A stretch of 64,000 bases of DNA, counting the filler, from Reclinomonas americana ATCC 50394 (Eukaryota): assembly GCA_048213135.1 (NCBI GenBank). It is 8 parts of 5 records of this genome, joined end to end, with 100 filler letters (N's around TTAATTAATTAA, not from the genome) between each part and the next. Parts side by side here need not be neighbours in the genome. Positions count along the whole stretch, not along the records: positions 1 to 14,502 come from PS015695.1; 7 more parts are not named here. One strand, given 5' to 3'. Position numbers and translations under genes: made by a program. The number at the start of each line of letters is the position of its first letter. Positions within the stretch are counted from its first letter, which is position 1. Positions 184-22,875 of the stretch are shown piece by piece. The notes beneath the pieces are model-generated. The model made no database searches, was not told where the DNA came from, and saw nothing but the letters and a program-made list of their open reading frames with translations.

Positions 184-783
184 TGCGATTCCGTCTTAGG
201 AGGGCTGGCGCGTCGGCTTAGCTTCTGATCGTCTCCAGGGAAGTGTGTTTGCCGAAATTGGCGCGCATGAACAGCGCTAGACATTGATTAACCAGGCGGC
301 TGTCGGGCGCCCCCTGCCTCAAACTTGCATGCCCGACTAGAAGCGCTTTCGGTTTGGGGAAGGGGAGAGCGATTGATCTGGCGGTAGGCATTGTTTCGGT
401 CGCAGCTGACCGGGTGAGCATATGCCAACCCGCCATCCAGGTGCCTGCCTTACGGCTAGGGCCAATGATCAGCCTTGATCCTTACTTCAGGAACCCCGCC
501 ACACAGCGCACTTTCTATTGCCGCGGAGTCGGGTGCCCGGATTTCAAATTGGAAACCCTACTTAGCCGATTAGCGTCGTTTGAATGCCTCCAGATGGCGC
601 ACGGCGACAGGCGCTTTCAAGAAAGTTGCTTGTTCAAAAAATATCCGGTGGAAAATTCAGTGTTTAATACTCGGAGCACCTAGCGTGGCCGAATATTTTC
701 CGGCGTTTATCCGTTCTCGCACGGGGTGGGGCTCATATCTCAGCTGCTAAACCGTCTGGTTATCGGTAGGGCAGCGTCGATCA

Positions 784-2214
784 ATGAGCAGTGACATACA
801 GGGCTTCATTGCTACTTTTCTTGCGGAAATCGACGCCGGCAACGCTGCGATTTTTGCGGGCGCCGGCCTATCGGCTCCGGCCGGCTTTGTCGACTGGGCC
901 AACCTGATCCGTCCGCTTGCCGAAGAGCTTCACCTCGACGTCGAGAAGGAAAGCGATCTGGTCGCTGTCGCGCAATTCCATGTGAACGCCAACCATCAGA
1001 ACAGGCATGCCCTTCATACTGCCATCGTCAACGCTTTCTCGGCGGATAACCCGCCAACCCGCAATCATCGACTTTTGGCACGGCTTCCGATCACGACCTA
1101 CTGGACGACGAACTACGACCGACTAATCGAGACGGCGTTGAGAGACGCAGGAAAGATTGTCGACGTCAAATGGGCTGTGCCACAGTTGGCAAACACGCAG
1201 CCTCGACGCGATGCTATCGTCTACAAAATGCATGGTGATGTTGAGCGTCCCGATGAGGCTGTAGCGACGCGAGATGATTACGAGCGGTATGTTAGTGACC
1301 GAGGGGCATTCATAAACGCGCTGGCCGGCGATCTCGTCTCGAAAACATTCTTATTTTTAGGTTTTAGCTTCACGGATCCAAATCTTGAGCAAGTGTTGGC
1401 TCGAGTACGGATCACATACAAGGACAATCAGCGGCGCCACTTTGCGATTTTTCGCAACAGGACACGCCGCAAGGGCGAGAGTAAAGCCGCGTTCGAGTAC
1501 GGAAAAATTCGCCAAGCGCTGGTGCTCGAAGACCTGAAACGCTTCAACATCCGCCCTGTGCTGGTCGACGAGTACAGCGAAATCACCACGATACTGACTG
1601 AAATCGAACGGCAGTACCGTAGCCGCACCGTTTTCGTTTCATCGAGCGCAAGTGATTTTGCCCCTTGGGGGGAGCCGGCCGTCGCTAGCTTCATGCGCAC
1701 ACTTGGTTCCGCTTTGATCTCGGCAAAGTCTCGCATTGCGACGGGCATGGGTCTCGGCGTCGGTAATGCGCTGTTTACCGGCGCGCTCGAGGCGGTTTAC
1801 GCCGACCGCCAAAGTCATCTCGAAGACCGGATCGTGATGCGCCCGTTTCCGCAATACATCGCCGACGAAGCGAGGCGGAAGGAAATCTGGGAAACCTATC
1901 GTCAGGAAATAATTTCGTCAGCGGGCATCGCGCTGTTCCTGTTCGGAAACAAGAAGGCCGATGAGAGCACGGTTATTGCGGACGGAATGATCCGCGAATT
2001 CGAGATCGCCCGCCAACACGGTCTCACCTGCCTTCCCGTCGGAGCTACTGGCTATGCCGCCGCGGAGTTGGCCGATCGCTTGATCGGGAGTGGTGCTGAT
2101 GGAGACGCGATGTTGCTGGCGGTCCTGAAGGAGCTCCGCGACCCGCGCGAGAATCTCAACGAGCTTATCGACCCGATCCTGAAATTTGCCGCGGCTGCGC
2201 GAAAGGCACGATAA
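784..2214 (+). CDS. thsA: Thoeris effector ThsA (SIR2 NADase plus C-terminal SLOG/STALD domain)
   Basis: SIR2 motifs FAGAGLS, TTNYD, KMHGD and FLGFSF. The C-terminal SLOG-like part has TGMGLGVG, RPFPQ, FLFGNK and PVGATG. Followed directly by TIR genes. Confidence 0.92.
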   Translation: MSSDIQGFIATFLAEIDAGNAAIFAGAGLSAPAGFVDWANLIRPLAEELHLDVEKESDLVAVAQFHVNANHQNRHALHTAIVNAFSADNPPTRNHRLLARLPITTYWTTNYDRLIETALRDAGKIVDVKWAVPQLANTQPRRDAIVYKMHGDVERPDEAVATRDDYERYVSDRGAFINALAGDLVSKTFLFLGFSFTDPNLEQVLARVRITYKDNQRRHFAIFRNRTRRKGESKAAFEYGKIRQALVLEDLKRFNIRPVLVDEYSEITTILTEIERQYRSRTVFVSSSASDFAPWGEPAVASFMRTLGSALISAKSRIATGMGLGVGNALFTGALEAVYADRQSHLEDRIVMRPFPQYIADEARRKEIWETYRQEIISSAGIALFLFGNKKADESTVIADGMIREFEIARQHGLTCLPVGATGYAAAELADRLIGSGADGDAMLLAVLKELRDPRENLNELIDPILKFAAAARKAR

Positions 2215-2218
2215 GCCG

Positions 2219-2836
2219 ATGCACAAAGTCTTCATCAGCTATCACCACGCCAATGACCAGTGGGCCAAGAACCAGTTGCAGCAATGGGCCTATCAATATG
2301 GTCTCTTCCTTGACGTCTCCGTTGACACGAACGATGTCAACGAAGGACTTCCCACTGAAAGCATCCGCCGGATCATCCGAGATGATTATCTTATGGATTC
2401 GAGCGTCACGATTGTTCTGGTCGGTGTTGAGACTTGGGGCAGGAAACACGTCGACTGGGAGATCTACTCCAGCATGTATGATGGGGCGGTCAATAAGAAG
2501 TCCGGAATCCTGGTTGTTCAACTCCCGTCCGTCTCCCCCCAATATTGGACGGCGGCGCACGAGGTCGAGAAAAGTACCGTTTATCCCGATTGCACCTCGT
2601 GGAGCACCATTACGGACCGGGCGGAATATGAGCGGCGCTACCCGTATTTGCCTGCCCGCATAATTGACAATTTGCTGGCTCCGAAAGCGAAGGTATCCGT
2701 CACGACTTGGGACCGTATCGCGGGAGACTTGAACAATCTCGTGACGATGATAGACGCGGCTTATAACGATCGAATGTCATGCGAATACGATCTTTCGCGG
2801 CCGATGCGCTCGAAAAACGCACCGGCATTCATTTAA
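2219..2836 (+). CDS. thsB: Thoeris TIR protein ThsB (DUF1863/MTH538-like TIR)
   Basis: ATG 4 nt after the thsA stop; HKVFISYHH, VTIVLVG and RKHVDWEI with the catalytic Glu. Confidence 0.88.
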   Translation: MHKVFISYHHANDQWAKNQLQQWAYQYGLFLDVSVDTNDVNEGLPTESIRRIIRDDYLMDSSVTIVLVGVETWGRKHVDWEIYSSMYDGAVNKKSGILVVQLPSVSPQYWTAAHEVEKSTVYPDCTSWSTITDRAEYERRYPYLPARIIDNLLAPKAKVSVTTWDRIAGDLNNLVTMIDAAYNDRMSCEYDLSRPMRSKNAPAFI

Positions 2837-2914
2837 GCCTGAGCTTGAATTTCAGCGAATCTGTTGGCCGCTGAGCGGCGGATAATAAGACGTAAGAAAA
2901 TTTAGGGAGAACCG

Positions 2915-3484
2915 GTGTCCACGTTCACGGAAAGCCGCATCAGGAGGCGTGCGCAACAGAAGGTCGGAACCTCAAGGACGGCGAAGGCTGTTCTCACGGA
3001 GGAGGTCGCGACAGCAAAAGCCAAGACGAGCTTCGACATTTTTCTCAGTCATTCGACGGCCGACGCTGAGATCATTCTTGGCGTCAAAGGTGTTCTGGAG
3101 GATTATGGAAAATCGGTCTATGTCGACTGGCTCGAAGATCCACAGTTGGACAGAAGCAATGTCACTCCGGCGACTGCTGAAGTTATTAGGGCTCGAATGC
3201 GCCAGTGCGAGTCACTCGTCTATGTGCACTCCACAAATTCGGGATCGTCTAAATGGATGCCTTGGGAATTGGGATTCTTCGATGGCTTCAACGGGGCAGT
3301 GGCGATACTTCCTGTAACGAAGGTTGAGCAATACCGCTACGAAGGCCAGGAATATCTGGGCATCTATCCGTATCTGGACGAGGCGCCGGCTCAGGGTAGC
3401 GAGGTCAATCAAATGTGGGTCAACAGAAGTTCGAAATCTCGGCAATGGAACACCTGGGTCATTGATCCCAAAACATTTCGCTAG
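2915..3484 (+). CDS. thsB: second TIR-domain protein (ThsB-like)
   Basis: GTG start after AGGGAG; FDIFLSHS, VYVDW and SKWMPWELG TIR motifs. Confidence 0.82.
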   Translation: MSTFTESRIRRRAQQKVGTSRTAKAVLTEEVATAKAKTSFDIFLSHSTADAEIILGVKGVLEDYGKSVYVDWLEDPQLDRSNVTPATAEVIRARMRQCESLVYVHSTNSGSSKWMPWELGFFDGFNGAVAILPVTKVEQYRYEGQEYLGIYPYLDEAPAQGSEVNQMWVNRSSKSRQWNTWVIDPKTFR

Positions 3485-3677
3485 GTGAGCTAGGCGCCTT
3501 AGCCGGGCCCCTTCAAAGTTTGTCGGAGAACATCGTCGGAACCCCTTTGGCTCCGGCAAAACTGATCGTAGCAATAATCAGAATTGTCACTGCGCGAATG
3601 AGATCTCTGCAATGTCACATCTGGAACGGCGCGCGAGGCTCAAAGAGCATCCGCCACACGACTGCCTTTCCCGCCTC

Positions 3678-3908
3678 TCATTTCTCGCGCATGGCGCGCC
3701 CGTTCTGGATGAACAAGCTCAATAGGTTTGCATGCCCCCGAGCATCATCGATAGCTCGGTGGGTGTGCTCGACCTCACCCAGCCATTCGGGCGGATAATG
3801 CGCGACATCGCATTCCCAGCGGCCACGACTCGTACCGCCAGCGACCATCGACATTAGGCGCAGAGGCCCACGCCGGAAGAGGCAATCGGAAGTCGCCGAG
3901 AAACGCAA
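3678..3908 (-). pseudogene. C-terminal remnant of a DEDDh 3'-5' exonuclease
   Basis: YPPEWLGEVEHTHRAIDDARGHANLL carries the ExoIII H-x-A-x2-D motif. No ExoI/II part is present because the carbamoyltransferase stop (3918) abuts it. Confidence 0.55.
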
Positions 3909-3917
3909 CCCTTCTCG

Positions 3918-5522
3918 TCAAAAATGGTCGCGCAGATAATTTTGGTACCCAACGGACGTTTTTAACATGTAGATGTGCCCGTTGACTACGAACCCGTCTA
4001 ATTGATGGCTCTTCACATAAGATGAGATATCTGAAATAGAGTTTATAAAGCCTTTGTTCTTAAAGTTTAAGGATGTATTGCATAGAACTCCATAGTTTGT
4101 TAGCGATTTGAATGCTGTTAACAGTTCAAACAGCGGAAAATTGCTTGCAGAAGACACGGTTTGAAGGCGGGCTGTTCGGTTCACATGGGTAACTGCTGCA
4201 AGCTTATCAGTGGAGGCCTTATAGGTATAAAGCATGAATGGGCTCGCCTGATCGCATCCAAACCATTTTTTAGCGTCATTTTCCAAGCAGACAGGCGCGA
4301 TCGGACGAAACTGCTCCCGCTGCTTGATGACGTTCAGTCGCTCTCTGGTGCTGGCTTTAAAAGGTGCCGCCAAGATGGAGCGATTACCAAGAGCGCGGGG
4401 TCCGATTTCACAACGACCGCTTATCCACCCCAAGATCAGGTCACTTGCCAACATTGCGGCTGCGGTCGTAACGCTCGGCTCCCAATGGTCAAACTGAGAG
4501 CTATCGACAGCTTCGTCGGACTGAAAGTGCGGGCCAGAGTATACGTCCCACGCAATCTTTGGGTCGCCAGTCAAATGAAACTGCGCGTCGACGGCAGTGC
4601 CAATCGCCGATCCCGAGTCGTTCGCCACCGGGGGGACGAACACATCGCTGAATAATCCTGAATTTCTCCACTTAGTGTTCCAGTCGCAGTTTAATCCGCA
4701 TCCCCCCGCGATCAACAGCGGCATTCCTCGTTTCAATTTTGTCTCAGCAAACTGATGAAAGCGGTCGAACAATCGGTCGCTAAAGATGCCTGCAAAATTT
4801 CGGAATTCCGGATCGTCCAGCCCAACGTTGTAGTGTGAGAACTCTTTCAAGACTTCACAATCGCGAGGTTTAAGATGCTTGCAATCCTGCAGCAGAAAAG
4901 ACGTAATCGCTAGCTCCTCGCTGGAAGGCAGACTTCTTTTCGAGTACGAGGCGAGTGCCATAAGTTTCCCGGCATCGGATAAACGGGAAAATTCTGCAGT
5001 GTTTTTGTCGAAAGTAGGGTCTGCCAATGCGTAAAGCATGGCGTAGCGATGGCCAGGTTCTGGCATCACATCAGCAATCTTCGTGATATTGAGTTCAGCA
5101 TCGATCTCGTAGAATGCACCGATGACGCCTTCCCAGAGCAAGGCGTAGCACGGATTCCCCCTCGGCAGGTTCGACATCCCAAACGCGCACAAAAGATGCG
5201 ACCGTTCATGGGACGAAGAAAAGACGTCGATCGTTTTGCCCAAAAAGTTCCTCTTGCTGACGATCACCTGATCGTTGTTACTGCCGTGGTAATCAGATAC
5301 CGGCTCACCCCCATTCGAAGCGTCGCCGGGCCACCAGCCGCCTCTACATAGCACGTCGGGAATGGCATGAAGCCCGGCAAGTGCGTCGAATGCGTCGGGG
5401 ACCGACAGCGGCGAATGCCGGTACTTCGAGCTCTTCTCGGCCTCAAAGGAGAATACCAAGCGGCGGTCTTCGAGATAGGCAAATGCACCGTCATGGCCCG
5501 GATTGTAAGAAAGTATCTTCAT
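3918..5522 (-). CDS. carbamoyltransferase, CmcH/NodU/TobZ family
   Basis: Starts MKILSYNPGHDG with an ATGA overlap. Motifs HERSH, GKLMALA, AGGCGLNCDWN, NDSGSAIG, EIGPRALGNRS, KQREQFRP, ARLQTV and NTSLN. Confidence 0.93.
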   Translation of the reverse strand: MKILSYNPGHDGAFAYLEDRRLVFSFEAEKSSKYRHSPLSVPDAFDALAGLHAIPDVLCRGGWWPGDASNGGEPVSDYHGSNNDQVIVSKRNFLGKTIDVFSSSHERSHLLCAFGMSNLPRGNPCYALLWEGVIGAFYEIDAELNITKIADVMPEPGHRYAMLYALADPTFDKNTAEFSRLSDAGKLMALASYSKRSLPSSEELAITSFLLQDCKHLKPRDCEVLKEFSHYNVGLDDPEFRNFAGIFSDRLFDRFHQFAETKLKRGMPLLIAGGCGLNCDWNTKWRNSGLFSDVFVPPVANDSGSAIGTAVDAQFHLTGDPKIAWDVYSGPHFQSDEAVDSSQFDHWEPSVTTAAAMLASDLILGWISGRCEIGPRALGNRSILAAPFKASTRERLNVIKQREQFRPIAPVCLENDAKKWFGCDQASPFMLYTYKASTDKLAAVTHVNRTARLQTVSSASNFPLFELLTAFKSLTNYGVLCNTSLNFKNKGFINSISDISSYVKSHQLDGFVVNGHIYMLKTSVGYQNYLRDHF

Positions 5523-8455
5523 ACTGAAACTCCGCTGAAAGCCGGGCTTTCCGGGGCTTCGAGACCCGTAGCCATATTTTTGAGTGTCGATGGGCCGTAG
5601 GCCCGAGCTCGCATCGATTGGACGTGGGTCATGGTTGGAAGTCGGCGAGTGTCGAGGCGCCCCGCAAGCTGAGAGGAGCGAGAGGGCCAAGTGTTGAAAT
5701 GCAATTTCATGGGCAGGTGCGGGATCGGAGTTGGATCCCAAAGCACACGTCGGTGGACGAGTAAGTCATCCACAAACCACCGAATCTCGAATGGGGTCCA
5801 TTCGATGGCATACTTATGCATGCCCTTAGAAGCATCGAATCCCAGTTCGATGTAGCTTGGAGAACCTCGATAGCCGTAGTCGAACTTGGCGCCCTCGTAG
5901 CCTGGGTTATAGAAGACATTCACGATTAGGCGGTGCGGCTTATTGCCGACTATCTCAACGTCAATTTCCTGGTGCGGCGAGTTGCGGTGAAGGAAGAACC
6001 CGGTGACCACCCCCGGCGCGTCCGACGCTTGGAAAAATGCTTCGAACCTCCCAAAAAGATAGTCGGCATGGCTGGTCAGAGCGCCTGCGCTGTATTGTCG
6101 AACTCCTAGCTCTTCGCGGCGAACGTGTATCGTCGCCCCCTCAAAACCATTGAGCTCGACGTTCTGAGGACGGAACAGCGCCAAGTTGCCAGTGAACGTG
6201 TCTGATCGGAGGGACCAGCGCAGCGGGTTGAGCTCGCCGGAACCATCATCCACGTCGACCCAACTTTCCACACCCTCAGGCGCGAGGGGTGCGATCTGAA
6301 TTCCAGGCCAATCGCGGTGATCCTGTTCGACAACCCATGGGGACCGATCCCACTTGGGTGTTGTGCGCTTATCGGCCAGGACAGGTTGCCCGTACGTTTC
6401 GACGATATGCCGCCGCCCCAGATCATCCAGCCTTGGAAACGAGCACAAAGGTGGCACGCTCCTAAGGTGCTCGCAGAGATGCCGCCAAGCGTTAGCGTTG
6501 CTGGGATCAAGCACGATGACGTCCGCGCCATCGAGGCTCGCTAGAATGTCTAGGACGTTTTGGCTTTCAAGATCACTTGGATGCGCGGTTACTATGAACT
6601 TGGCTTGTGGATAGCCGCGTCGAAGGCTCTCGACCAATGGGTCGAGACACCCCACGTTGACGTACGCATTAAAGACCCGATCAGAACCGCCCTCTCGAAG
6701 CTCCTGCAATTCGCGGCAGGGCAGACCTTCTAGNNNNNNNNNNNNNNNNNNNNNNNNNNNNNNNNNNNNNNNNNNNNNNNNNNNNNNNNNNNNNNNNNNN
6801 NNNNNNNNNNNNNNNNNNNNNNNNNNNNNNNNNNNNNNNNNNNNNNNNNNNNNNNNNNNNNNNNNNNNNNNNNNNNNNNNNNNNNNNNNNNNNNNNNNNN
6901 NNNNNNNNNNNNNNNNNNNNNNNNNNNNNNNNNNNNNNNNNNNNNNNNNNNNNNNNNNNNNNNNNNNNNNNNNNNNNNNNNNNNNNNNNNNNNNNNNNNN
7001 NNNNNNNNNNNNNNNNNNNNNNNNNNNNNNNNNNNNNNNNNNNNNNNNNNNNNNNNNNNNNNNNNNNNNNNNNNNNNNNNNNNNNNNNNNNNNNNNNNNN
7101 NNNNNNNNNNNNNNNNNNNNNNNNNNNNNNNNNNNNNNNNNNNNNNNNNNNNNNNNNNNNNNNNNNNNNNNNNNNNNNNNNNNNNNNNNNNNNNNNNNNN
7201 NNNNNNNNNNNNNNNNNNNNNNNNNNNNNNNNNNNNNNNNNNNNNNNNNNNNNNNNNNNNNNNNNNNNNNNNNNNNNNNNNNNNNNNNNNNNNNNNNNNN
7301 NNNNNNNNNNNNNNNNNNNNNNNNNNNNNNNNNNNNNNNNNNNNNNNNNNNNNNNNNNNNNNNNNNNNNNNNNNNNNNNNNNNNNNNNNNNNNNNNNNNN
7401 NNNNNNNNNNNNNNNNNNNNNNNNNNNNNNCAGCCTGCTAGATCGCTGCAGCATCGGTACCCAAGCATGGACAATGCCATTGCTAGGGATGAAAGCCCCG
7501 AATTGGCTGGACCAAATGCAAACACAGGCAACTGCGTCGGACGAGTGCTAAATAGGGCTGCGCCCTCGCTGTCGATCGCGCCGATCGTGGAGAGCGTTGG
7601 GAGGATCGAATACGAGTTGGTAGAAGTGGCATCGTTTCTTTGGTAAACAATGGCGCGCCTTGTCGCTAATACGTTCAGTGAACTGAACTGATGGTTTATC
7701 CAAAGATCTACTGGGCCACGGCACGGTAGCAATCTAAGAAGTTTCTCAGCGCCTTGACGTGAAAGAATATATCCCGATAGATACCATAGCCCACGCACCG
7801 GCCTGAACACGCTGCTTGTCATGAACGATTTTGGAGAACCGTTTTTTACCTCTAGATATGATACGTAAAGGACATCGACGTTCTCATGCTCTTTACTGAG
7901 AGCTGCGAGTTCTTTCCACGCTCGGTCAATTTGACGGGCAAATTTTGGATGAAACCAAACGTCGTCCTCTAGGATGAGAACGTGCTCTTGCGTTCCTTGC
8001 GCTATTCGTCTCCAAACCTCAATGTGTGACTTTGCAACAGCGACTTCAGCCCTACTCATCCGGATCGGTGCTTCAAGCTCGAACCGGGTTGGCAATGTCC
8101 GAGGCTGCGGCTCAACAAAAAGCTGATCTGCCAGGGTGTAGTAGGGATCCACATCTTCGTCTTTGACCGGATCCCGCTCAAAATTCCTTGCGTCCAGAGC
8201 GGCATGCCGTTCGGTGAGGCTGAGAAGATGATTTCCACCCTCGTCCTGTATGCGTCTAAGCTCCTTCTGAAGGCGGGACCATCGATCCGGCTCGCGATCA
8301 AGGTTGATCACGTAGATCTTCCCGATCGTCTCCGCACCTGAACCGCTTGGCGGCCCGAACGATTCTGAAGTTTGCTTCGGAAGGATTCTACGAAGGCCGT
8401 GTCCCAGGCGAGACACCAGGCGAAGGATAGTCAGCGGCGTCTGGGCTAGATTCAT
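5519..8455 (-). CDS. fusion of GT25 glycosyltransferase, sulfotransferase-like domain and GH16 glycoside hydrolase; interrupted by an N gap/probable IS
   Basis: GT25: IYVINLDREPDRW, SHIEVW, ILEDDV. Sulfotransferase-like: FGPANSGLSSLAMALSMLGY, YPQAKFIVT, WRHLCEHL. GH16: GVVTGFF and the EIDVE catalytic motif. ATGA overlaps at both ends. Confidence 0.85.
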   Translation of the reverse strand: MNLAQTPLTILRLVSRLGHGLRRILPKQTSESFGPPSGSGAETIGKIYVINLDREPDRWSRLQKELRRIQDEGGNHLLSLTERHAALDARNFERDPVKDEDVDPYYTLADQLFVEPQPRTLPTRFELEAPIRMSRAEVAVAKSHIEVWRRIAQGTQEHVLILEDDVWFHPKFARQIDRAWKELAALSKEHENVDVLYVSYLEVKNGSPKSFMTSSVFRPVRGLWYLSGYILSRQGAEKLLRLLPCRGPVDLWINHQFSSLNVLATRRAIVYQRNDATSTNSYSILPTLSTIGAIDSEGAALFSTRPTQLPVFAFGPANSGLSSLAMALSMLGYRCCSDLAGXXXXXXXXXXXXXXXXXXXXXXXXXXXXXXXXXXXXXXXXXXXXXXXXXXXXXXXXXXXXXXXXXXXXXXXXXXXXXXXXXXXXXXXXXXXXXXXXXXXXXXXXXXXXXXXXXXXXXXXXXXXXXXXXXXXXXXXXXXXXXXXXXXXXXXXXXXXXXXXXXXXXXXXXXXXXXXXXXXXXXXXXXXXXXXXXXXXXXXXXXXXXXXXXXXXXXXXXXXXXXXXXXXXXXXXXXLEGLPCRELQELREGGSDRVFNAYVNVGCLDPLVESLRRGYPQAKFIVTAHPSDLESQNVLDILASLDGADVIVLDPSNANAWRHLCEHLRSVPPLCSFPRLDDLGRRHIVETYGQPVLADKRTTPKWDRSPWVVEQDHRDWPGIQIAPLAPEGVESWVDVDDGSGELNPLRWSLRSDTFTGNLALFRPQNVELNGFEGATIHVRREELGVRQYSAGALTSHADYLFGRFEAFFQASDAPGVVTGFFLHRNSPHQEIDVEIVGNKPHRLIVNVFYNPGYEGAKFDYGYRGSPSYIELGFDASKGMHKYAIEWTPFEIRWFVDDLLVHRRVLWDPTPIPHLPMKLHFNTWPSRSSQLAGRLDTRRLPTMTHVQSMRARAYGPSTLKNMATGLEAPESPAFSGVSV
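6730..7441. mobile_element. probable unassembled IS inserted at a CTAG target
   Basis: CTAG at 6730-6733 and 7438-7441 flank the gap, and CAGCCTG precedes the second CTAG. Removing 6734-7441 gives a continuous reading ...YRCCSD-LEGLPCRE... Confidence 0.6.
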
Positions 8456-9324
8456 TGGGCGTCCGCATGCGGAGTTGCGCGGTAGGCCTGTTGATTGGAC
8501 AGCCTCCAGTTCCTTGAATCGTTGCGGTAACTCAGTGGCCACTGGCTGGTGGATACCAGCTCCCAGTCATGAGCGACCATCATTGCTCCAGGCGAACATC
8601 CCTCGCTTATGACTTCGAATACCGATCGTGTGAGATTTCCCGGCCCGGTCGTTGCCTGAACCTCGGGCAGCCCGTTCGAGCTGTCCGCTTCCAGAGAGGC
8701 CGTGGCGTTCAACAACGCTCTTTCAACAATGGGGTGATTGCGAGACGCGATTAGAGGCGTCGTATTGAAGTAAAAAATCCACCCTGGTTGATTGGCGCCC
8801 GGCTCTGTGAAGATGGACGGGGCCACCATTTGAGCCGTTGCGATGTCGTAGCAGAACGGCTGAAGCTTGAGTCGTCGATCCGCGAAAAGGTGGTCGATCG
8901 AGGTTCCGTGGTAAACATCGTCGGCGTCGATATAGAAACCACCTTCAACAAGAACATACGAATAACGGAAATAATCGGACATCATTGACGGATGGTAGCA
9001 CGCGTTGAAAGCGTTCTCGTAGCGATTTCCCAGCCGGGTTCGGATGAACATGCTTGCAGAACTCCTGTCGAACACCTCCAGTTCGAATCCGCTCCGCTCT
9101 AGCTGTTTCCAGGAGTTCATGCAGGCTTTGACGTCCTCAGGTAATCGCTGCAGATCATCCCAGAACTGAACAATACGCTTTGGCGTCGACCCCGACCAAG
9201 TCATCGGATCGAGTGGAGAGGGGGCACGCCGCTGCACCATGTCTCGCACGAAGTTAGAGCGCGCACGTTCCGCAGGCTCCAGTGGATCGGCGTCGAGAGC
9301 CTGGTCCGCTCTTGCTTCGTTCAT
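8452..9324 (-). CDS. DXD glycosyltransferase, GT32/OCH1-like
   Basis: PKRIVQFWD, MSDYFRY, GGFYIDADD and TTGPGNLT; AAGGGG RBS before the ATG at 9324. Confidence 0.82.
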   Translation of the reverse strand: MNEARADQALDADPLEPAERARSNFVRDMVQRRAPSPLDPMTWSGSTPKRIVQFWDDLQRLPEDVKACMNSWKQLERSGFELEVFDRSSASMFIRTRLGNRYENAFNACYHPSMMSDYFRYSYVLVEGGFYIDADDVYHGTSIDHLFADRRLKLQPFCYDIATAQMVAPSIFTEPGANQPGWIFYFNTTPLIASRNHPIVERALLNATASLEADSSNGLPEVQATTGPGNLTRSVFEVISEGCSPGAMMVAHDWELVSTSQWPLSYRNDSRNWRLSNQQAYRATPHADAQ

Positions 9325-9522
9325 TTGCGCTGTCCCCTTTTTCAAGTTTCTGATCATCAATGAGCGATCGCACGCCAGTGCAGCCTGGTTGTGCCAACGG
9401 CCCTTCGGAGCGCTTGCCTCGTGCTTCGTACAGCTGTCAGGCGCTGCGAGTTGGCTTGGGTGCGAGGTGCCAGCCGCGCTACCACTATCAAAAAACCGCC
9501 AGCAATCGAGGTCGCTGCTGGC

Positions 9523-12195
9523 TTAAACCAAAACAGCCTTGGCTGGTTCTTCGAGTGCATTACGAACTTTCGCGGCTGCCTTACCTCGGCTCTTGTAGTC
9601 CGCCTGGAAGGTATCGAGCGCCTGGACGTCGACCAGCATCTCCGCGGGCGTTGGGACTGGAATGTCCCGGCCGGCGGGCATGTCGTGGCCTGATCGCTCC
9701 GAAACATGCTTCATCGCGAAGAAAATGGCCTTGTAGTCTTCATCGGACACACTTAATGCGCTGAGCCGCTTCGTCATCACGTCCGGCACCAGACGCTCGA
9801 CCGTCTTGTTCAGAACCACCTCCTCGACGCTCCGCTCCCAGGTCTCGCGGAGATCGGAATAGAAATCCTTGGCCAGGCGCCGGTAGGTCTCGGATGTGAA
9901 ATCGGTCGTGCCAGAGAGCTGTTTGGCTCTGGCTCGAAGATCGGTGATACGAGCGCTGACACTGCGGGCCAGCCAGGGGTCAGTGTCCTCCTCGACGACA
10001 CCAAATCCGTCGGCTTCTGTTTTCCGGATGACCATTTTGATGAGTGGAGCCGCATCGCCAGCCTTGGCGGTCTGGGCAACAACCTCGTTGAAGAATACGA
10101 GGCTGTGAGTGAAGATGATGACCTGTCGACCTTTCGCGGCCTCTTGCACCAGCCGCTCGGCGACGAGCCGGATTCTTCGCTGATCCAACGACGACACGGG
10201 GTCGTCTACAATCAAGCCATAGCCTTTACCTTCGTCGCCGATTTCGGCAAGAAAGCAGGCGAGCGCCAGCGCGCGCTGCTCGCCCTCGCTGAGAATCTGA
10301 TTACTTGCGATCTTGTCGATGCCCTGCAAGCTGACCGCGAACCGGCTTTGGCCTTGTTCACTGCTGTCGCTAACGCGGAAAGGAATGTGATTGAGGTCGA
10401 GCTTTTGGATTTCAGCCTGGATGCGCTTTTGCAGGCTATCGGTCACCAGCTTGCGGCGAAGCGCGCTGATCTGAATCGATATCGCCCTGGTCTGCACTTG
10501 GACCTGGCAGGCCTTTACCGCAGCGAGTTCCCGAAGTTCAACGAGACGCTGCAATACGACAGGCAAATCATTCTGAAGCTTGAATCGGTCCTTCAACAAC
10601 GCGATTCGAGCACGATCAGCATCGAGCGCCGAGGCATGCGTTGCGCTTGCATCCAACTGGGCCGCCTCGGTGCCGAGCTTTTCGATATCGGCGGAAAGGG
10701 CTGATCGCAGAGACGGTGGAAGCGGAGCCAATTCCTGGTCTGGATCGGAAATACGCGCGAGAAGATTGCCGCGCCTTGCAGCAAAGGCTGTGAGGGACGT
10801 CTCAATCTGGCTGAGCAAACTGGCGCGTGAGCCGTCTAGGCCTGCGTAGGCGGTCAAGGTTCCAGCTACGACGTCGGTCGGCGGGACGGTCAACGATTCC
10901 AGTGCTTCCCTGGCCTTTCCAAGCTCGTCTCGCGCGGCGTCCGCACGCTTTGCCGCTTCGCTTTGAACGAACGCATTGAACCGAGCCATGCGTTTCGCGG
11001 CTTCGTCGCTGAGCGGCTCCTGGCATAATGGGCAGGGGCTGCCCGCATGGTCGGATATCCGATCAGCGGGCCCCCCGGAAAGGATAGCAAAATCCCGAGC
11101 GGCTTCATAAAGCAGCCGCCATGCGTCGCCCCCGACGAGATTCAAAGGCTCAGCTGCAAACTGTTGGCTTGCCGCCAGCCCGGCCGCGGCGGCCGTGGTG
11201 CTGGCATTCTGCGCCAAACCCGCAAGCTGCCGTCCGACTTCATCGGACAAACCCTCTTCAAGCGATTTCAGCACGTCGTTGAGACGGGCCAAGAGCTGCA
11301 TCGCACGCTTGCGCGTCGCAGCCTGCGCGACGGGATCTTGCGCAAGCTTGCGCTCAAGCCCGCCTAACTCCCCCAGTTCCGCCTCGCTTAGGCCGGCGAG
11401 CTTTTCGATTTCGGATTTTTCCGGAAGCGTCCGGGACTTTGCCTCAAGCTGCCCAAACAGCTTTTGCATCGTCCCACCGGGTGCGTAGCCAGCGGGGAGG
11501 GGTGTCTTGAGACGCTTTTCGATCGCCGTCTGCTGGATCGAAAACTCAGCGCCGAAGGCAGTGCATAGCTGCCCATGGTGCTCGAGAACCGCGATCTCGA
11601 CTGGAAGGTATGCTATCCGGTTTTGCTGGTCGACGTAGAGGCGGGCATTTCGGCTGTCGAAGACCGAAATTTGCTTCAACGCGCCTGGTGGTTTGGTGTC
11701 CGGCGCCCAGTCCAATTCCGTAATGGCCGCGTCTCCGAGCTGGAAACGAAGTTTGACCTGCATAGGCTCGTCAGGCTTCGGCTTGAAAACATCTCCTTTG
11801 AGCTCGTCGATCGATAGGCTGCGGCAGAGGCGTTTTGCTATCCTGGCATATCCGCTCTTCCCACTGCCGTTTTCACCGAAGATCAGCGTGACACCGCGGG
11901 GCGCAAAGCGCAGCTGCTGATCTTTGGCCAGGCGATCGATATTTTGCAGCGGTCCGATCGACGCCAGCGCCGCGCGGGGGCCGATCTCTGAACACTGGGA
12001 CAGGTGTTCCCCGGTGATCGGCTCACAATCTGGCGCCGTTCCAACTCCGCCGGCTTCATGCTTGAGCCGCTCCAGGACGGCCGCGCGGTCCTCGTCCCGA
12101 ATGATAAATTCGCTCGTCGTGGCGATTCGGCGAAGGGCGTCACGCGCCCAATCGGGTTGGTTCGCCGCCCATTCGATCAGGCTTACGTCCGCCAT
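9523..12195 (-). CDS. Rad50/SbcC/RloC-like ABC ATPase with zinc hook (890 aa)
   Basis: Walker A GENGSGKS, coiled coil with CPLC hook, signature LSEGEQR, Walker B/D-loop VDDPVSSLD, H-loop FTH, and a helical C-terminal domain of about 150 aa. Confidence 0.85.
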   Translation of the reverse strand: MADVSLIEWAANQPDWARDALRRIATTSEFIIRDEDRAAVLERLKHEAGGVGTAPDCEPITGEHLSQCSEIGPRAALASIGPLQNIDRLAKDQQLRFAPRGVTLIFGENGSGKSGYARIAKRLCRSLSIDELKGDVFKPKPDEPMQVKLRFQLGDAAITELDWAPDTKPPGALKQISVFDSRNARLYVDQQNRIAYLPVEIAVLEHHGQLCTAFGAEFSIQQTAIEKRLKTPLPAGYAPGGTMQKLFGQLEAKSRTLPEKSEIEKLAGLSEAELGELGGLERKLAQDPVAQAATRKRAMQLLARLNDVLKSLEEGLSDEVGRQLAGLAQNASTTAAAAGLAASQQFAAEPLNLVGGDAWRLLYEAARDFAILSGGPADRISDHAGSPCPLCQEPLSDEAAKRMARFNAFVQSEAAKRADAARDELGKAREALESLTVPPTDVVAGTLTAYAGLDGSRASLLSQIETSLTAFAARRGNLLARISDPDQELAPLPPSLRSALSADIEKLGTEAAQLDASATHASALDADRARIALLKDRFKLQNDLPVVLQRLVELRELAAVKACQVQVQTRAISIQISALRRKLVTDSLQKRIQAEIQKLDLNHIPFRVSDSSEQGQSRFAVSLQGIDKIASNQILSEGEQRALALACFLAEIGDEGKGYGLIVDDPVSSLDQRRIRLVAERLVQEAAKGRQVIIFTHSLVFFNEVVAQTAKAGDAAPLIKMVIRKTEADGFGVVEEDTDPWLARSVSARITDLRARAKQLSGTTDFTSETYRRLAKDFYSDLRETWERSVEEVVLNKTVERLVPDVMTKRLSALSVSDEDYKAIFFAMKHVSERSGHDMPAGRDIPVPTPAEMLVDVQALDTFQADYKSRGKAAAKVRNALEEPAKAVLV

Positions 12196-12324
12196 GGCCC
12201 CCGCATTCGCCCTTGTATCCAGTCAGGTTTTTGGAGCTTAGCCGCGAGGAGAATGTTCGTCACGCGCTCTAGTTGTAAAGATTGCTGTCGGCGAGCGGAT
12301 GCAGGTCGGCTAAGGAAATGGATC

Positions 12325-14498
12325 GTGACTTATCGCTTCATCCACACTGCTGACATTCACCTGGATTCGCCGCTGCGCTCCCTCGCGCTGCGCAATCCGG
12401 AGTTGGCTGAGCTCATCGGCAACGCCACACGGCAAGCCTTCGTGCGGATCATCGACCTCTGCCTCGCGGAGCAGGTCGATGCGCTGCTGATCGCCGGCGA
12501 TCTCTACGACGGCGACCAGAGCTCCATGAAGACGGCGCGCTTTCTGGCCGAGCAGCTGCGGCGGCTGGATCAGGCCGGCATCCCGCACCTTNNNNNNNNN
12601 NNNNNNNNNNNNNNNNNNNNNNNNNNNNNNNNNNNNNNNNNNNNNNNNNNNNNNNNNNNNNNNNNNNNNNNNNNNNNNNNNNNNNNNNNNNNNNNNNNNN
12701 NNNNNNNNNNNNNNNNNNNNNNNNNNNNNNNNNNNNNNNNNNNNNNNNNNNNNNNNNNNNNNNNNNNNNNNNNNNNNNNNNNNNNNNNNNNNNNNNNNNN
12801 NNNNNNNNNNNNNNNNNNNNNNNNNNNNNNNNNNNNNNNNNNNNNNNNNNNNNNNNNNNNNNNNNNNNNNNNNNNNNNNNNNNNNNNNNNNNNNNNNNNN
12901 NNNNNNNNNNNNNNNNNNNNNNNNNNNNNNNNNNNNNNNNNNNNNNNNNNNNNNNNNNNNNNNNNNNNNNNNNNNNNNNNNNNNNNNNNNNNNNNNNNNN
13001 NNNNNNNNNNNNNNNNNNNNNNNNNNNNNNNNNNNNNNNNNNNNNNNNNNNNNNNNNNNNNNNNNNNNNNNNNNNNNNNNNNNNNNNNNNNNNNNNNNNN
13101 NNNNNNNNNNNNNNNNNNNNNNNNNNNNNNNNNNNNNNNNNNNNNNNNNNNNNNNNNNNNNNNNNNNNNNNNNNNNNNNNNNNNNNNNNNNNNNNNNNNN
13201 NNNNNNNNNNNNNNNNNNNNNNNNNNNNNNNNNNNNNNNNNNNNNNNNNNNNNNNNNNNNNNNNNNNNNNNNNNNNNNNNNNNNNNNNNNNNNNNNNNNN
13301 NNNNNNNNNNNNNNNNNNNNNNNNNNNNNNNNNNNNNNNNNNNNNNNNNNNNNNNNNNNNNNNNNNNNNNNNNNNNNNNNNNNNNNNNNNNNNNNNNNNN
13401 NNNNNNNNNNNNNNNNNNNNNNNNNNNNNNNNNNNNNNNNNNNNNNNNNNNNNNNNNNNNNNNNNNNNNNNNNNNNNNNNNNNNNNNNNNNNNNNNNNNN
13501 NNNNNNNNNNNNNNNNNNNNNNNNNNNNNNNNNNNNNNNNNNNNNNNNNNNNNNNNNNNNNNNNNNNNNNNNNNGGCCGCGCCGAGGCGCTGGAGCTTCC
13601 GGGCCCGGCCGGGCGGGTCCCGATCGTGATCCATGGGCTGAGCTTCGCGCAGCCCCACGCTCCGGAGAGCCTGCTCGGCAAGTATCGGCCGCTGGTCGAG
13701 GGTGCGGTCAATATCGGCATGCTGCACACCAGCCTGGCCGGCACCCCGGGCCACGACCTCTATGCGCCCTGCAGCCTGGCCGACCTTCGGACGACGGGGT
13801 TTCGCTACTGGGCGCTCGGCCATATCCACAAGCGCGCCGTCATCGACGATGCCTGCCTGATCGCGATGCCGGGCATGCCGCAGGGCCGCGACATCAACGA
13901 GGCCGGTCCGAAATCCGTATCGCTGGTCACGGTCGGCGACGACCGCTCGATCACGATCGAAGAGCGCGTGACCAGCGTCGCGCAGTTCGAGCGGGTCACG
14001 GTCGACGCGACCGGAATCGAGGATTGGCGGGAGCTGGTCTCCGGTGTCGCGCGGGCCCTGGAGACGACACGCAGCGCGGTCGATTCCGCGCATCTCGTCG
14101 CGCGGCTGCAGGTCGTGGGAGCAACATCCCTGGCCTGGCGCATTCGCCGCGACATGGATCTGCTGAAGACCGAGGCCGACGACCGGGCTGCCGTCATCGG
14201 CTCATGCTGGGTGGAAAAGCTCGAGATCGCCTGTCATCCGCCTGCGCTGCCGGGGGAGACGAGCGGCGATCCACTGACCGACCTCCACCGCCTGATCGAG
14301 GAGCAGATCCTCGGCTCCGATGCCTTCGCTGCTACGCTGGCCGGCATGGCGGAGGAAATCCGGGCACAGCTTCCGCAGGAATGCCGCGACGTGCTGGGCG
14401 CCGACGAGGAGGCCTTCCGCGCCCATCTCGCGCGCATCGCCCGCGATGGCGCGGAGACGGTGGTCGCGCGGCTGCAGGCAGCGGGGGAGGGCAGCTGA
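12325..14498 (+). CDS. SbcD/Mre11-like DNA repair metallophosphoesterase (YhaO-like), spanning an N gap
   Basis: GTG start; HTADIHLD and AGDLYD before the gap; LHTS, YWALGHIH and PGMPQGRDINE after it. Confidence 0.88.
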
Positions 14499-15374
14499 AT
14501 GCNNNNNNNNNNNNNNNNNNNNNNNNNNNNNNNNNNNNNNNNNNNNTTAATTAATTAANNNNNNNNNNNNNNNNNNNNNNNNNNNNNNNNNNNNNNNNNN
14601 NNCGAAGCCGAGCGCGACATCTGCGAGGCGATGCGCAGCGACGACCTCGCCAGCGCCGAGGCGGCGCTCGCCCGCGCGGCTCGCCCGGCGCTGGAGACCG
14701 AATGGAACGAGCTGAAGGTGCGCTTCGAGGATCAGGACCGGCGCTGCCACGAGCTCTTCGCCGCCCGCGCGACGGCGATCGACCAGGTCGAGGCGATCGG
14801 CGGCGATGCCCGAGTTGCCGAGATCGAAGAGCGCCGCCGGACCACCTTGCTGGAGATCGAGGACGGGGCGCTGCGCTATCTGCAATTGCGCGCCGGCATC
14901 GCCGCGGCGGAGCAGGCCCTCACGATCTATCGCGAGCGCCATCGCAGCTCCATGATGGAGCAGGCCTCGGCCGCGTTCCGGACGATCAGCCGGGGCGCCT
15001 ATTCCGGCCTCGCGGCGCAGCCCGGCAAGGATGGCGAGACGCTGATCGCCCTTGCAACCGGCGGCGGCTCGAAGGCCGCGGACGAGCTTTCGAAGGGCAC
15101 GCGCTTCCAGCTCTATCTCGCGTTGCGCGTCGCCGGGTATCATGAATTCGCAAAGGCGCGGCGCGCTGTGCCCTTCGTGGCCGACGACATCATGGAGACC
15201 TTCGACGATTTCCGCGCCGAAGAGGCGTTTCGCCTGTTCGCGGACATGGCACGGAGCGGGCAGGTCATCTACCTGACCCACCACCAGCATCTCTGCGAGA
15301 TCGTCCAGCGCGTCTGCCCGACGGCGCGACTGCACACATTGGATGCGCCAGATTTATCGCGTCGGATAACGTGA
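14499..15374 (+). CDS. YhaN/SbcC-like AAA ATPase; start codon and C-terminal part only, middle missing at contig join
   Basis: ATG immediately after the sbcD-like stop. The next contig reads LSKGTRFQLYLALR, PFVADDIMETFDD and QVIYLTHH. Confidence 0.82.
14547..14558. other. artificial contig spacer TTAATTAATTAA (also at 35685, 47346, 51638, 55478, 60103, 62687)
   Basis: Identical 12-mer with stops in all six frames, centred in N runs of equal length, seen 7 times. Confidence 0.97.
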
Positions 15375-22874: not shown

Positions 22875-22875
22875 T

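Follow-up and report, generated by a model that had tools for sequence, protein, structure and literature searches.

Phages carry small glycosyltransferase sets with known acceptors, such as the T4 glucosyltransferases (hmC DNA) and gtrABC (O-antigen on its lipid carrier), and the GT25 beta-glycosyltransferases include LOS enzymes of the Lic2A/LgtB type. Carbamoyltransferases of the NodU type also occur in phages. One report (PMC8670742) describes a phage member of this family whose action on 5hmC, in DNA, RNA, and NTPs alike, yields 5-carbamoyloxymethyl-C, an activity that the first-pass annotation of the locus studied here had invoked.

We analyzed a 64,000-nucleotide stretch (the window) of the Reclinomonas americana ATCC 50394 assembly GCA_048213135.1. 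It concatenates contigs through seven artificial joints, the N44-TTAATTAATTAA-N44 blocks, and physical linkage to the locus extends over positions 1-14502 only. Four long, co-oriented ORFs occupy the minus strand at 3918-12195, and their Pfam matches (Carbam_trans_N/C, GT25, GH16, Gly_transf_sug of the GT32 type, and AAA_13) agree with the families assigned at first pass. The four genes had been regarded as one system; their anatomy very probably reflects two separate units instead, an ATPase and a three-gene cassette, in the following layout:

784..3484, plus strand: type I Thoeris, a neighbor (SIR2-STALD ThsA and two TIR-type ThsB)
3918..5522, minus strand: O-carbamoyltransferase, 534 aa, Kae1-like and YrdC-like domains, third cassette gene (Pfam, PDB, PHROGs)
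5519..6733, minus strand: 3' part of the fusion gene, second half of a decayed P-loop domain plus GH16 (Pfam Glyco_hydro_16, 1.1e-28)
6734..7437, no strand: insertion of 697 N and 7 foreign bases (N runs, alignment with P0001)
7438..8455, minus strand: 5' part of the fusion gene, comprising GT25 and the first portion of the P-loop domain (Pfam Glyco_transf_25, 1.5e-15)
8452..9324, minus strand: GT32-type retaining glycosyltransferase, 290 aa, first cassette gene (Pfam Gly_transf_sug, Foldseek)
9500..9517, minus strand: terminator-like hairpin and T run directly 3' of the ATPase stop (pattern scan)
9523..12195, minus strand: AAA_13/ABC-type ATPase, 890 aa, a neighbor and not a component (PADLOC PDLC04891, Pfam AAA_13)

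The cassette genes (8452-9324, 5519-8455, and 3918-5522) are coupled by ATGA overlaps at 8455-8452 and 5522-5519, as had been proposed: the ATG of the fusion gene (8455-8453) overlaps the GT32 stop, and that of the carbamoyltransferase gene the stop of the fusion gene. The carbamoyltransferase gene converges on the second ThsB gene of the Thoeris system that the cassette was said to face (ThsA, 784-2214; ThsB, 2186-2836 and 2915-3484), which is recognized by Pfam (STALD, 1.5e-61; SIR2_2; ThsB_TIR; TIR_2) and PADLOC (ThsA, 1.1e-192; ThsB, 9.9e-72). The reported AT richness proved modest (53.8% GC in the region versus 58.0% in the window), and the deep GC dips along the window are N runs. Consistently with the first-pass description, positions 1-14502 encode no exporter or polymerase, nor any flippase, lipid-carrier transferase, or nucleotide-sugar gene, and neither signal peptides nor transmembrane segments were found in the cassette proteins; no 19-residue window reached a Kyte-Doolittle value of 1.6 in any of 57 fusion and 31 GT32 proteins.

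The GT32 product matches Pfam Gly_transf_sug at 1.1e-6 (29.7 bits; cut-off, 23), and its DXD motif (D145, D147, D148) is invariant in 31/31 orthologs. A start at ATG 9324 (290 aa) fits alignment A3 better than TTG 9360, which was rejected. In Foldseek searches with an AF2 model (pLDDT, 81.8), the nearest structure was the Och1 mannosyltransferase (1.4e-9), followed by bacterial protein-glycosylating GT-A domains (1e-8 to 1e-6) and then glycogenin. The fusion protein carries an acidic GT25 motif (E163-D164-D165) and a GH16 E-x-D-x-E motif (E594, D596, E598), both invariant in 57/57 orthologs. Against the PDB, its GT25 part weakly matched procollagen galactosyltransferase 1 (COLGALT1; ∼4e-4), whereas the best GH16 matches (4e-14 to 1e-7) were lichenases, xyloglucan endotransglycosylases, and fungal Crh/Crf1 enzymes; the AF2 model of the whole protein (pLDDT, 35) is of no use for domain arrangement. 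The sulfotransferase-like domain named at first pass was not upheld (PF17784, 19.5 bits; cut-off, 22.8). The carbamoyltransferase matches Carbam_trans_C (1.5e-52) and Carbam_trans_N (1.3e-23), the structures of TobZ (1e-33), GdmN, and the novobiocin carbamoyltransferase (range, 1e-30 to 1e-35), and, over its full length, phrog_1601 ("Nol-like carbamoyltransferase"; 4.5e-75). Named phage genomes share no more than 32% identity with it, and a single 7.4-kb contig, unverified and deposited as "Bacteriophage sp.", reaches 45%. No PADLOC-DB v2 model matched the three glycan genes, and no NCBIfam cut-off was reached, the best scores being 263.6 bits for the NodU equivalog (cut-off, 1000) and 85.3 for BglS (of 300).

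The first-pass description of the fusion gene had only hinted at an interruption. Its GT25 and GH16 domains stand, but the ORF crosses 697 N (6734-7430) and seven readable foreign bases (7431-7437), with CTAG on both sides (7438-7441 and 6730-6733). The N stretch is unreadable, being either an assembly gap or masked sequence. The reference P0001 is an uninterrupted 742-aa protein with 99% identity; the window copy is split after CCSDL, and the product of 5519..6733 is 99% identical to P0001 residues 339-742. Because of this interruption of ∼0.7 kb, mostly N and flanked by CTAG, the cassette copy in the window is probably inactive.

Among candidate stretches from contigs of one genome per species, 195/236 encoded a relative, and 80 loci were kept. 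Gene order, which the first-pass annotation had proposed to check, is conserved: the GT32 gene lies upstream of and adjacent to the fusion gene in 77/80 loci, the three misses being contig starts, and a carbamoyltransferase ORF is present in 63/80, while 13 loci hold a two-gene form. The cassette spans at least 14 phyla, including Bacillota, Actinomycetota, and Gram-negative phyla, and retains 54 to 76% identity across Bacillota, Actinomycetota, Chloroflexota, Bacteroidota, and Pseudomonadota. In the family tree, 24 phylum changes were counted over 52 labeled rows and 14 phyla, versus 28 to 30 in the five shuffles listed out of 200. Gabija genes excepted, flanking families recur in three loci at most. 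Each of 20/20 genomes carries one cassette. Most copies are chromosomal, beside host defense systems; carriers also include conjugative IncC and IncFII plasmids, with the cassette within ∼6 kb of arr-3 and dfrA27 on one plasmid and ∼6 kb from psiB and a plasmid SOS-inhibition gene on one. It matched none of 50,697 phage records, a DNA search of 5,426 complete Escherichia coli genomes did not recover it, and it occurs in only 4 of 2.9 million IMG/VR contigs. No paper on this three-gene set was found in the literature searched. We are confident of its anatomy as an autonomous, horizontally mobile, translationally coupled cassette of GT32, fusion, and usually O-carbamoyltransferase genes.

The ATPase, judged by its sequence, is a stand-alone, full-length member of the PADLOC candidate defense family PDC-S06: residues 5-868 align with positions 6-854 of the 858-position profile PDLC04891 (E = 4.1e-163), with a further match to AAA_13 (6e-20) and, in the translation, a CPLC motif as the sign of the putative zinc hook named at first pass. 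Its inclusion at first pass in a single system, in which the ABC/AAA_13 ATPase would sense or power the glycosylation and carbamoylation enzymes, has in its favor the shared orientation of all four genes, the gap of only 198 nt between the ATPase stop and the GT32 start, and the presence of PDC-S06 proteins beside the cassette in two other loci (L021 and L043). Those are, however, the only such cases in 80 loci, one lying upstream and one downstream and representing different PDC-S06 subfamilies, and Gabija is a commoner neighbor (6/80). Upstream of the GT32 gene, conservation across loci ends after ∼50 nt. The hairpin at 9500-9517 is a consensus match from a scan that returned 3 sites in the region versus 6.8 expected from shuffles, and is relevant because it lies 6 bases after the ATPase stop. 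PADLOC lists the family as a single-gene candidate, which is the meaning of the "S" in its name. The ATPase is thus placed outside the cassette on account of its full-length PDC-S06 match, the hairpin, and its rare and variable adjacency; a four-gene system is largely refuted by synteny and seems to us extremely improbable.

Defense genes are enriched around the cassette, as the first-pass annotation had anticipated. Considering, with crude ORF calling, the three ORFs (≥120 aa) closest to the cassette on either side, strong PADLOC matches (E ≤ 1e-25) were found for 60/373 cassette-neighbor ORFs versus 4/147 control ORFs (Fisher p = 5e-6). The controls comprised 115 ORFs at 100 kb on the same contigs (4/115 ORFs and 3/20 loci with a match) and 32 from other window pieces (0/32); over the 20 matched loci, a small control, Fisher p was 0.0087. 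Matches occurred at 29/76 loci by a strict and 34/76 by a lenient count, which differ in our own sorting of generic matches (UvrD-like, RtcR, kinase, ABC ATPase), and some of these loci are not independent: one arrangement of Gabija and cassette recurs in four, L053 resembles L055, and L039 and L040 proved to be a single contig sequence, for which one of the two entries was dropped. Besides Gabija, the neighboring systems are CBASS, Septu, Wadjet, SIR2-HerA, Shedu, Bil, AbiE, type I and IIG RM, and several PDC candidates. Within three ORFs, 42/76 loci had no PADLOC match, and 17/47 strict-negative loci adjoin an integrase, transposase, recombinase, conjugation gene, or TniQ. Taken together, defense or mobile-element genes are much more frequent next to the cassette than in the control regions. 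Residence in LPS/EPS or antibiotic clusters and loss of gene order had been named as arguments against a defense system; we found LPS, EPS, PKS, or NRPS genes in 0/146 Pfam-tested neighbors and a conserved order. The anti-phage proposal is favored by the neighborhood, from which a defense function would follow through guilt by association.

From its gene neighborhood, we regard the cassette as an uncharacterized cytoplasmic glycan-building set whose role in phage-host conflict we judge to be an evenly balanced proposition. Both DXD-type transferases would act in the cytoplasm with UDP-sugars as donors, GT32 attaching a sugar in alpha linkage and GT25 one in beta linkage; the GH16 domain would trim or transfer the beta-linked chain, like XET/Crh-type transglycosylases, and the TobZ/NodU-type enzyme would cap a free hydroxyl with carbamate from carbamoyl phosphate and ATP. 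As the cassette would need no host-specific partner across very different envelopes, the acceptor would be universal to bacteria or borne by the invader, the candidates being nucleic acids, nucleotides, proteins, and common lipid carriers. The outcome might equally be, or not be, defense or abortive infection in conflicts with phages or mobile elements, through glycan tagging or a toxic glycoside. Absence from the phage records and scarcity in IMG/VR fit a host-side role without proving it. Against this reading, a GH16 glycanase has no obvious cytoplasmic substrate, and mobile islands also bring non-defense cargo.

That cargo might be a mobile small-molecule pathway, making a carbamoylated glycoside or inactivating a toxic compound (resistance or detoxification). 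The closest solved carbamoyltransferases serve the tobramycin, geldanamycin, and novobiocin pathways, and cytoplasmic proteins without partner genes, carriage on conjugative plasmids, once near arr-3 and dfrA27, APH or GNAT enzymes as neighbors (L017, L012, L062), and 50 to 80% identity across phyla, a resistance-gene-like spread, all point the same way. Yet aglycone-forming, PKS, NRPS, and export genes are found in 0/146 neighbors, the enrichment concerns phage-defense systems and not resistance arrays, and it is hard to see what a GH16 endo-glycanase/transglycosylase would contribute to modifying a drug, so that we consider this pathway unlikely.

Were the cassette to modify a surface glycan, whether LPS, capsule, or teichoic acid, and thereby mask phage receptors or change serotype as phage gtr modules do, the link to phage pressure would be accounted for. 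Pfam describes GT25 from LOS/LPS core enzymes, NodU-type enzymes decorate secreted glycans, and PHROGs places a carbamoyltransferase and a GT25-like glucosyltransferase under "moron, auxiliary metabolic gene and host takeover". This is nevertheless improbable: flippase, polymerase, exporter, lipid-carrier transferase, and nucleotide-sugar genes are absent from the 146 neighbors as well as from 1-14502, the proteins have neither a signal peptide nor a transmembrane segment, and the five phyla sharing the cassette at 54 to 76% identity have no surface glycan in common. Slightly more doubtful still is an anti-defense, self-marking module that glycosylates and carbamoylates the element's own DNA or nucleotides to evade restriction. 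The 5hmC-modifying phage relative (PMC8670742) and plasmid copies, once near psiB and the SOS-inhibition gene, would suit it, but no hydroxymethylase or thymidylate-synthase homolog was found alongside the cassette, the phage records contain no copy and the IMG/VR contigs only four, chromosomal copies adjoining host defense systems prevail, and the two-gene form dispenses with the carbamoyltransferase.

The cassette compares with known systems part by part. Its GT32 shares a predicted fold and the DXD motif with Och1, the GT-A protein glycosyltransferases, and glycogenin, at TM-scores of only 0.41 to 0.48 and ∼15% identity; its acceptor may be a sugar, a lipid, or a protein. The GT25 domain lies above the Pfam threshold and keeps the acidic EDD motif; unlike LOS-type enzymes and COLGALT1, it belongs to a fusion with a decayed P-loop and GH16, is cytoplasmic, and sits outside LOS/LPS clusters. 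The GH16 domain matches lichenases, xyloglucan endotransglycosylases, and Crh/Crf1 in sequence and in the E-x-D-x-E motif, whereas those act extracellularly on wall glucans and this one, without a signal peptide, makes up the C terminus of a glycosyltransferase. The carbamoyltransferase has the two-domain Carbam_trans_N and Carbam_trans_C build of the NodU/NolO/CmcH/TobZ family, including the phage 5hmC enzyme (PMC8670742); it falls far below the NodU equivalog cut-off and has no hydroxymethylase, Nod, or antibiotic genes nearby. The neighboring ATPase matches PDC-S06 (relatives of PrrC, RloC, and LmuB) end to end, with an AAA_13 domain and a defense-island location, a likeness that does not extend to the glycan genes; the parts of the literature searched give no mechanism for this family, itself a candidate. 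Finally, the cassette resembles the DNA hypermodification and serotype conversion modules of phages (T4, gtrABC) as a small mobile glycosyltransferase set with a putative tie to phage-host conflict; it differs from them in being host- or plasmid-borne, in dispensing with flippase and hydroxymethylase, and in adding a GH16 domain.

ORF listing and translation bore out the four long minus-strand ORFs placed within 3918-12195 by the first-pass annotation, and the two ATGA overlaps that it had reported between cassette genes are present in the sequence.

Minus-strand ORFs of the cassette and its upstream neighbor, with Pfam matches
3918-5522, minus strand: O-carbamoyltransferase ORF (Carbam_trans_N and Carbam_trans_C)
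5519-6733, minus strand: fusion gene, GH16 part (GH16)
7431-8455, minus strand: fusion gene, GT25 part (GT25)
8452-9360, minus strand: GT32-type ORF (Gly_transf_sug)
9523-12195, minus strand: ATPase ORF (AAA_13, AAA_21, and SMC_N)

Upstream, a type I Thoeris system (ThsA SIR2-STALD and two ThsB) occupies the plus strand, its last gene being convergent to the carbamoyltransferase gene, and an Rfam scan of 1-14502 gave no match. Seven identical blocks consisting of 44 N, TTAATTAATTAA, and 44 N, which we take to be all-frame stop linkers as used for joining contigs, lie at 14503-14602, 35641-35740, 47302-47401, 51594-51693, 55434-55533, 60059-60158, and 62643-62742. At least eight contigs are thus strung together in the window; gene order across linkers is meaningless, and the piece carrying the cassette is 1-14502 only. 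Several of the contig ends adjoining linkers are simple GA/CT or GAA repeats. The reported AT-richness of the cassette stands as a modest difference once N is left out (GC is 53.8% in the cassette, 58.0% in the window, and 59.9% in the ATPase gene), whereas the deep dips to 0.06-0.43 GC are artifacts of N runs.

The fusion ORF contains a 697-N run at 6734-7430. A search with the C-terminal part of its product retrieved a family of 710- to 751-aa proteins; GT25 and GH16 occur together in all 120 matches listed, and P0001, an uninterrupted relative, is 99% identical to the window protein. Where P0001 reads CCSDLEGLPC, the window gene runs to CCSDL, followed by AG from seven foreign bases, the N run, and then exactly LEGLPC, with CTAG flanking the gap on both sides (7438-7441 and 6730-6733). 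Since the two window halves total 745 aa versus 742 aa in P0001, the N run covers an insertion of ∼0.7 kb with a 4-base duplication and not coding sequence. Judged from its sequence, the fusion gene is disrupted in this organism, which leaves the window with a broken copy of the cassette. The N run may mark a repeat, such as an IS, at which the assembly has a gap, or else sequence that was withheld.

The ATPase matches the PDC-S06 profile PDLC04891 of PADLOC-DB v2 end to end (E 4.1e-163; residues 5-868 versus profile positions 6-854 of 858), and a terminator-like hairpin with TTTTTT begins six bases past its stop codon. Among the best 80 of 195 cassette loci, tblastn located an adjoining ATPase homolog in L021 alone, where it is 29% identical and lies downstream of the carbamoyltransferase, and PADLOC scans of neighbors revealed a second PDC-S06, of another subfamily, upstream of the cassette in L043; the remaining 78 of 80 loci have no PDC-S06 neighbor, and Gabija is a commoner neighbor (6/80). 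Upstream of GT32, the DNA can be aligned between loci for only ∼50 nt. The profile match of its own, the hairpin, and an adjacency limited to 2 of 80 loci contradict the initial assignment of the ATPase to the cassette. It is, by all appearances, a separate and already catalogued defense candidate to be split from the cassette, and a single four-gene system including it, as first proposed, is very improbable. Divergent from the ATPase gene, an SbcD/Mre11-type metallophosphatase gene (Pfam Metallophos, 9e-7; TIGR00619 sbcd, 2e-11) lies on the plus strand within 12004-14498, broken by a 983-N run (12592-13574). The 290-aa ORF 3′ of it (13626-14498), which ends 4 bases before the contig joint, had no Pfam, PADLOC, or NCBIfam match; the two may constitute another defense-island pair.

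Both catalytic ends of the fusion protein are well supported, GT25 (PF01755) scoring 58.1 bits against a gathering score of 24 and GH16 (PF00722) 100.3 bits against 22. The GT25 acidic motif E163-D164-D165 and the GH16 residues E594, D596, and E598 (E-x-D-x-E), which we take to be catalytic, are invariant in 57/57 fusion proteins. For GH16, the closest relatives are lichenases, xyloglucan endotransglycosylases, and Crf1; GT25 shows weak similarity to procollagen galactosyltransferase. The sulfotransferase-like domain originally described between them did not survive inspection: Sulfotransfer_4 (PF17784) reached 19.5 bits versus a cutoff of 22.8, over profile positions 2-97 of 215 only. PAPS-binding loops contain a conserved basic residue; the glycine/serine loop that the middle domain retains across the 57 fusion proteins (G-P-x-x-S-G-x-S-S) has none, and we treat this region as a putative decayed P-loop domain. 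The AF2 model of the 742-aa fusion protein, from a 16-row alignment, was unusable (pLDDT 35).

The GT32 protein belongs to its family by Pfam score (PF04488, Gly_transf_sug; 29.7 bits against a gathering score of 23), keeps D145, D147, and D148 in 31/31 sequences, and gave a confident model (pLDDT 81.8), whose predicted fold is nearest to Och1, followed by bacterial protein-glycosylating GT-A domains and glycogenin (TM 0.41-0.48). A BFVD fold search returned only generic giant-virus and phage GT32-like transferases. The carbamoyltransferase is of the TobZ/GdmN type and not NodU (263.6 bits versus a cutoff of 1000 for NCBIfam NF041651), its sequence placing it in the wider O-carbamoyltransferase family only. 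Its full length is also covered by a match to the phage family phrog_1601, and PMC8670742 describes a phage enzyme of the carbamoyltransferase superfamily that carbamoylates 5hmC in DNA, RNA, and NTPs. None of the cassette proteins has a hydrophobic membrane-spanning segment. An unverified 7.4-kb 'Bacteriophage sp.' contig (L083; MT837218.1, 4185-5792) encodes a carbamoyltransferase 45% identical to that of the cassette, and so is much closer to it than cyanophage 'Nol-like' enzymes (26-32%). This contig was dropped, its neighboring genes being unrelated to GT32 or the fusion protein.

Scanning one genome per species (185,579 species) confirmed 195 loci, the best 80 of which were analyzed. Phyla with the cassette include Pseudomonadota, Bacteroidota, Nitrospirota, Planctomycetota, Thermodesulfobacteriota, Bacillota, Acidobacteriota, Chloroflexota, Actinomycetota, and Methylomirabilota, among others. 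Within these best 80 loci, identity is 50-76%, GT32 lies directly upstream of the fusion gene in 77 (the 3 exceptions begin at a contig end), and a carbamoyltransferase ORF follows in 63, with a two-gene form in 13, which upholds the notion of the three glycan genes as a conserved unit. The carbamoyltransferase is split or a remnant in L015, L026, L030, L059, L073, and L039/L040. Clustering of 1,242 locus ORFs uncovered no further family in more than 6 loci, the two largest being GajA and GajB, and all 20 genomes examined carry exactly one cassette copy. A FastTree tree of the 57 fusion proteins implied 24 phylum changes, against a minimum of 13 for 14 phyla and 28-30 in the five listed of 200 label shuffles, so that the fusion-gene tree is almost uncoupled from taxonomy. 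The cassette occurs on conjugative IncC, IncFII, and other plasmids (40 plasmid records match, 8 of them at ≥80% of the query) and on 4 IMG/VR contigs; the fusion protein had no match in 50,697 phage records, and a DNA search of complete E. coli genomes found no cassette. The anatomy is secure: two or three genes for cytoplasmic glycan enzymes form an autonomous cassette that crosses phylum borders, resides in defense islands and mobile elements, and often decays. On a Klebsiella michiganensis IncFII plasmid (L082; NZ_CP071395.1, 6687-11948), the two-gene form lies between two 603-nt tyrosine recombinase genes, ∼6 kb from psiB and the plasmid SOS-inhibition gene, an arrangement that looks like a small cassette-like mobile unit.

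Guilt by association in defense islands is reportedly the approach of Doron 2018-type screens. At each locus, up to three ORFs of ≥120 aa on either flank, the closest ones, were scanned with PADLOC (E ≤ 1e-25), which amounted to 373 ORFs at 76 loci after removal of L040 (a duplicate of L039) and of L013, L029, and L069, which had no neighbors. Matches were obtained for 60 of the 373 ORFs, several PDC candidates among them.

Defense families adjoining cassette loci
Gabija: L004, L005, L011, L022, L054, L065
CBASS: L064, L065
Septu and PDC-S06: L021
Wadjet: L027
SIR2-HerA: L039
Shedu and Old-like nuclease: L045
Bil: L046
Type I or IIG restriction: L009, L033, L043, L050, L056
AbiE: L009, L031
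bSEFIR: L044
Argonaute-associated nuclease: L042

Generic matches were set aside, namely a UvrD-like helicase (L002), RtcR (L016 and L059), a kinase (L026), a group II intron RT (L036), and an ABC ATPase (L063), which left 29 of 76 loci with a strict match, or 34 of 76 with generic families counted. As a control, none of 32 ORFs from other window pieces matched PADLOC. At an offset of 100 kb on the same contigs in 20 genomes, a rule fixed beforehand, 4/115 ORFs in 3 loci did so, all of generic kinds or partial, versus 16/118 ORFs in 11 loci (9 strict) near the cassette in the same 20 (Fisher's test, p = 0.0087 for ORFs and 0.019 and 0.0084 for loci). With all ORFs taken, the comparison was 60/373 versus 4/147 (p = 5e-6); cassette neighborhoods are thus richer in known defense genes than the background. 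A complete GajA and GajB pair stands on the same strand directly upstream of the cassette in L005, L011, L022, and L065, which belong to different classes (E down to 1e-273; positions ∼4.7-9.0 kb in the first three and 1.4-5.7 kb in L065), as if pair and cassette traveled as a composite island.

For the 47 loci lacking a strict match, Pfam was applied to the closest two ORFs on either flank (146 ORFs, those of >1,300 aa excluded), the other 29 loci being covered by PADLOC only. More defense-type domains appeared among the 146 (TIR_2, DUF4365, AbiJ_NTD4, SNase, and ThiF-DUF6791). Location in LPS/EPS or antibiotic clusters had been named beforehand as an outcome speaking against a defense role, and 0 of the 146 neighbors is a flippase, polymerase, exporter, priming transferase, nucleotide-sugar enzyme, PKS, or NRPS; nor does 1-14502 of the window hold LPS, EPS, or capsule cluster genes. 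Carbohydrate-related neighbors are limited to a GH16/SKN1 protein (L002), a sulfatase (L078), and an FGE-sulfatase protein (L019). The same 146 ORFs include assorted metabolic genes. Mobile-element genes adjoin 17 of the 47 loci (integrases, serine recombinases, transposases, a T4SS coupling protein or TraG, and TniQ in L070).

A role of the cassette in conflict, to which its gene neighborhood points, stands at roughly even chances. Of the rival readings, a cargo for synthesis or detoxification of a small molecule is unlikely, modification of a surface glycan quite improbable, and DNA self-marking by mobile elements slightly less probable still. The cassette travels with no gene for making an acceptor and is maintained by Gram-positive as well as Gram-negative lineages, for which reason we expect the acceptor to be either universal or brought in by an invader. 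A bolder reading, less likely than not, is a new immune or conflict system that, on infection, would build a short carbamoylated glycan on such a cytoplasmic acceptor, thereby blocking phage replication or arresting the cell. GT32 and GT25 would perform UDP-sugar-dependent alpha- and beta-glycosylation, respectively, GH16 would trim or transfer the beta-linked chain, and the TobZ-type enzyme would carry out O-carbamoylation. Phage DNA or nucleotides with hydroxymethyl bases, a phage protein, and a lipid carrier are candidate acceptors.

Other contig pieces of the window carry further genes of interest, among them a Tn7-like module.

Tn7-like genes
21033-22904, minus strand: TniQ
22876-23943, minus strand: TniB
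23958-25541, minus strand: TnsB-like (PADLOC TnsB, 6e-8)
26667-27368, minus strand: weak TnsA-like protein (E 0.013)

The cassette was considered as cargo of this element at 21-27 kb and the idea rejected, since the artificial joint at 14503-14602 lies between; being on another contig piece, the Tn7-like genes cannot be named as its carrier. One related cassette locus, L070, likewise has a TniQ neighbor. In the second piece, a MucR/Ros regulator, a DEDDh exonuclease (PADLOC DEDDh, 5e-27), and a UvrD-type helicase (GajB-like models, 1e-63; RTasHel, 4e-72) stand in a row on the plus strand at 16312-20216; the helicase could be housekeeping. The plus-strand genes at 29724-34108, namely an ORF with Xre_MbcA_ParS_C antitoxin and HAD domains, an FtsH-like AAA and M41 protein with IetA-like PADLOC matches (5e-26), and a metallophosphatase with a weak PDC-S10 match, could be a further defense-like cluster.

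Of the first-pass account, what was observed is confirmed in part and how it was read is likewise supported in part, with the ATPase split off and the local copy broken. Annotation of the window should accordingly list the ATPase separately as PDC-S06, mark the cassette copy as interrupted, and treat long-range gene order as a concatenation artifact. The three cassette proteins (the fusion as both halves) matched 0 PADLOC-DB v2 families at E ≤ 0.01 and reached no NCBIfam family cutoff; RefSeq names them 'family 16 glycosylhydrolase', 'glycosyltransferase', and 'carbamoyltransferase C-terminal domain-containing protein'. Full-text literature searches yielded no paper on this gene set. The family is an uncharacterized, unusual candidate conflict system. 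Should the cassette prove not to be immune, the retention of its three enzymes at 50-80% identity in at least 14 phyla, without any host-specific partner, would still imply a universal substrate. A direct test is cheap, as the cassette is self-contained, spans ∼5.4 kb, and occurs in culturable strains of several phyla. We know of no defense system with a set of glycosyltransferase, transglycosylase, and carbamoyltransferase, and the GH16 fold is, to our knowledge, otherwise known from extracellular wall remodeling. Bacterial immunity is known to act chiefly through nucleases, NADases, membrane effectors, and nucleotide signals; should a conflict role of the cassette hold, glycan chemistry would join these immune mechanisms, and the GH16 domain would have a cytoplasmic job.
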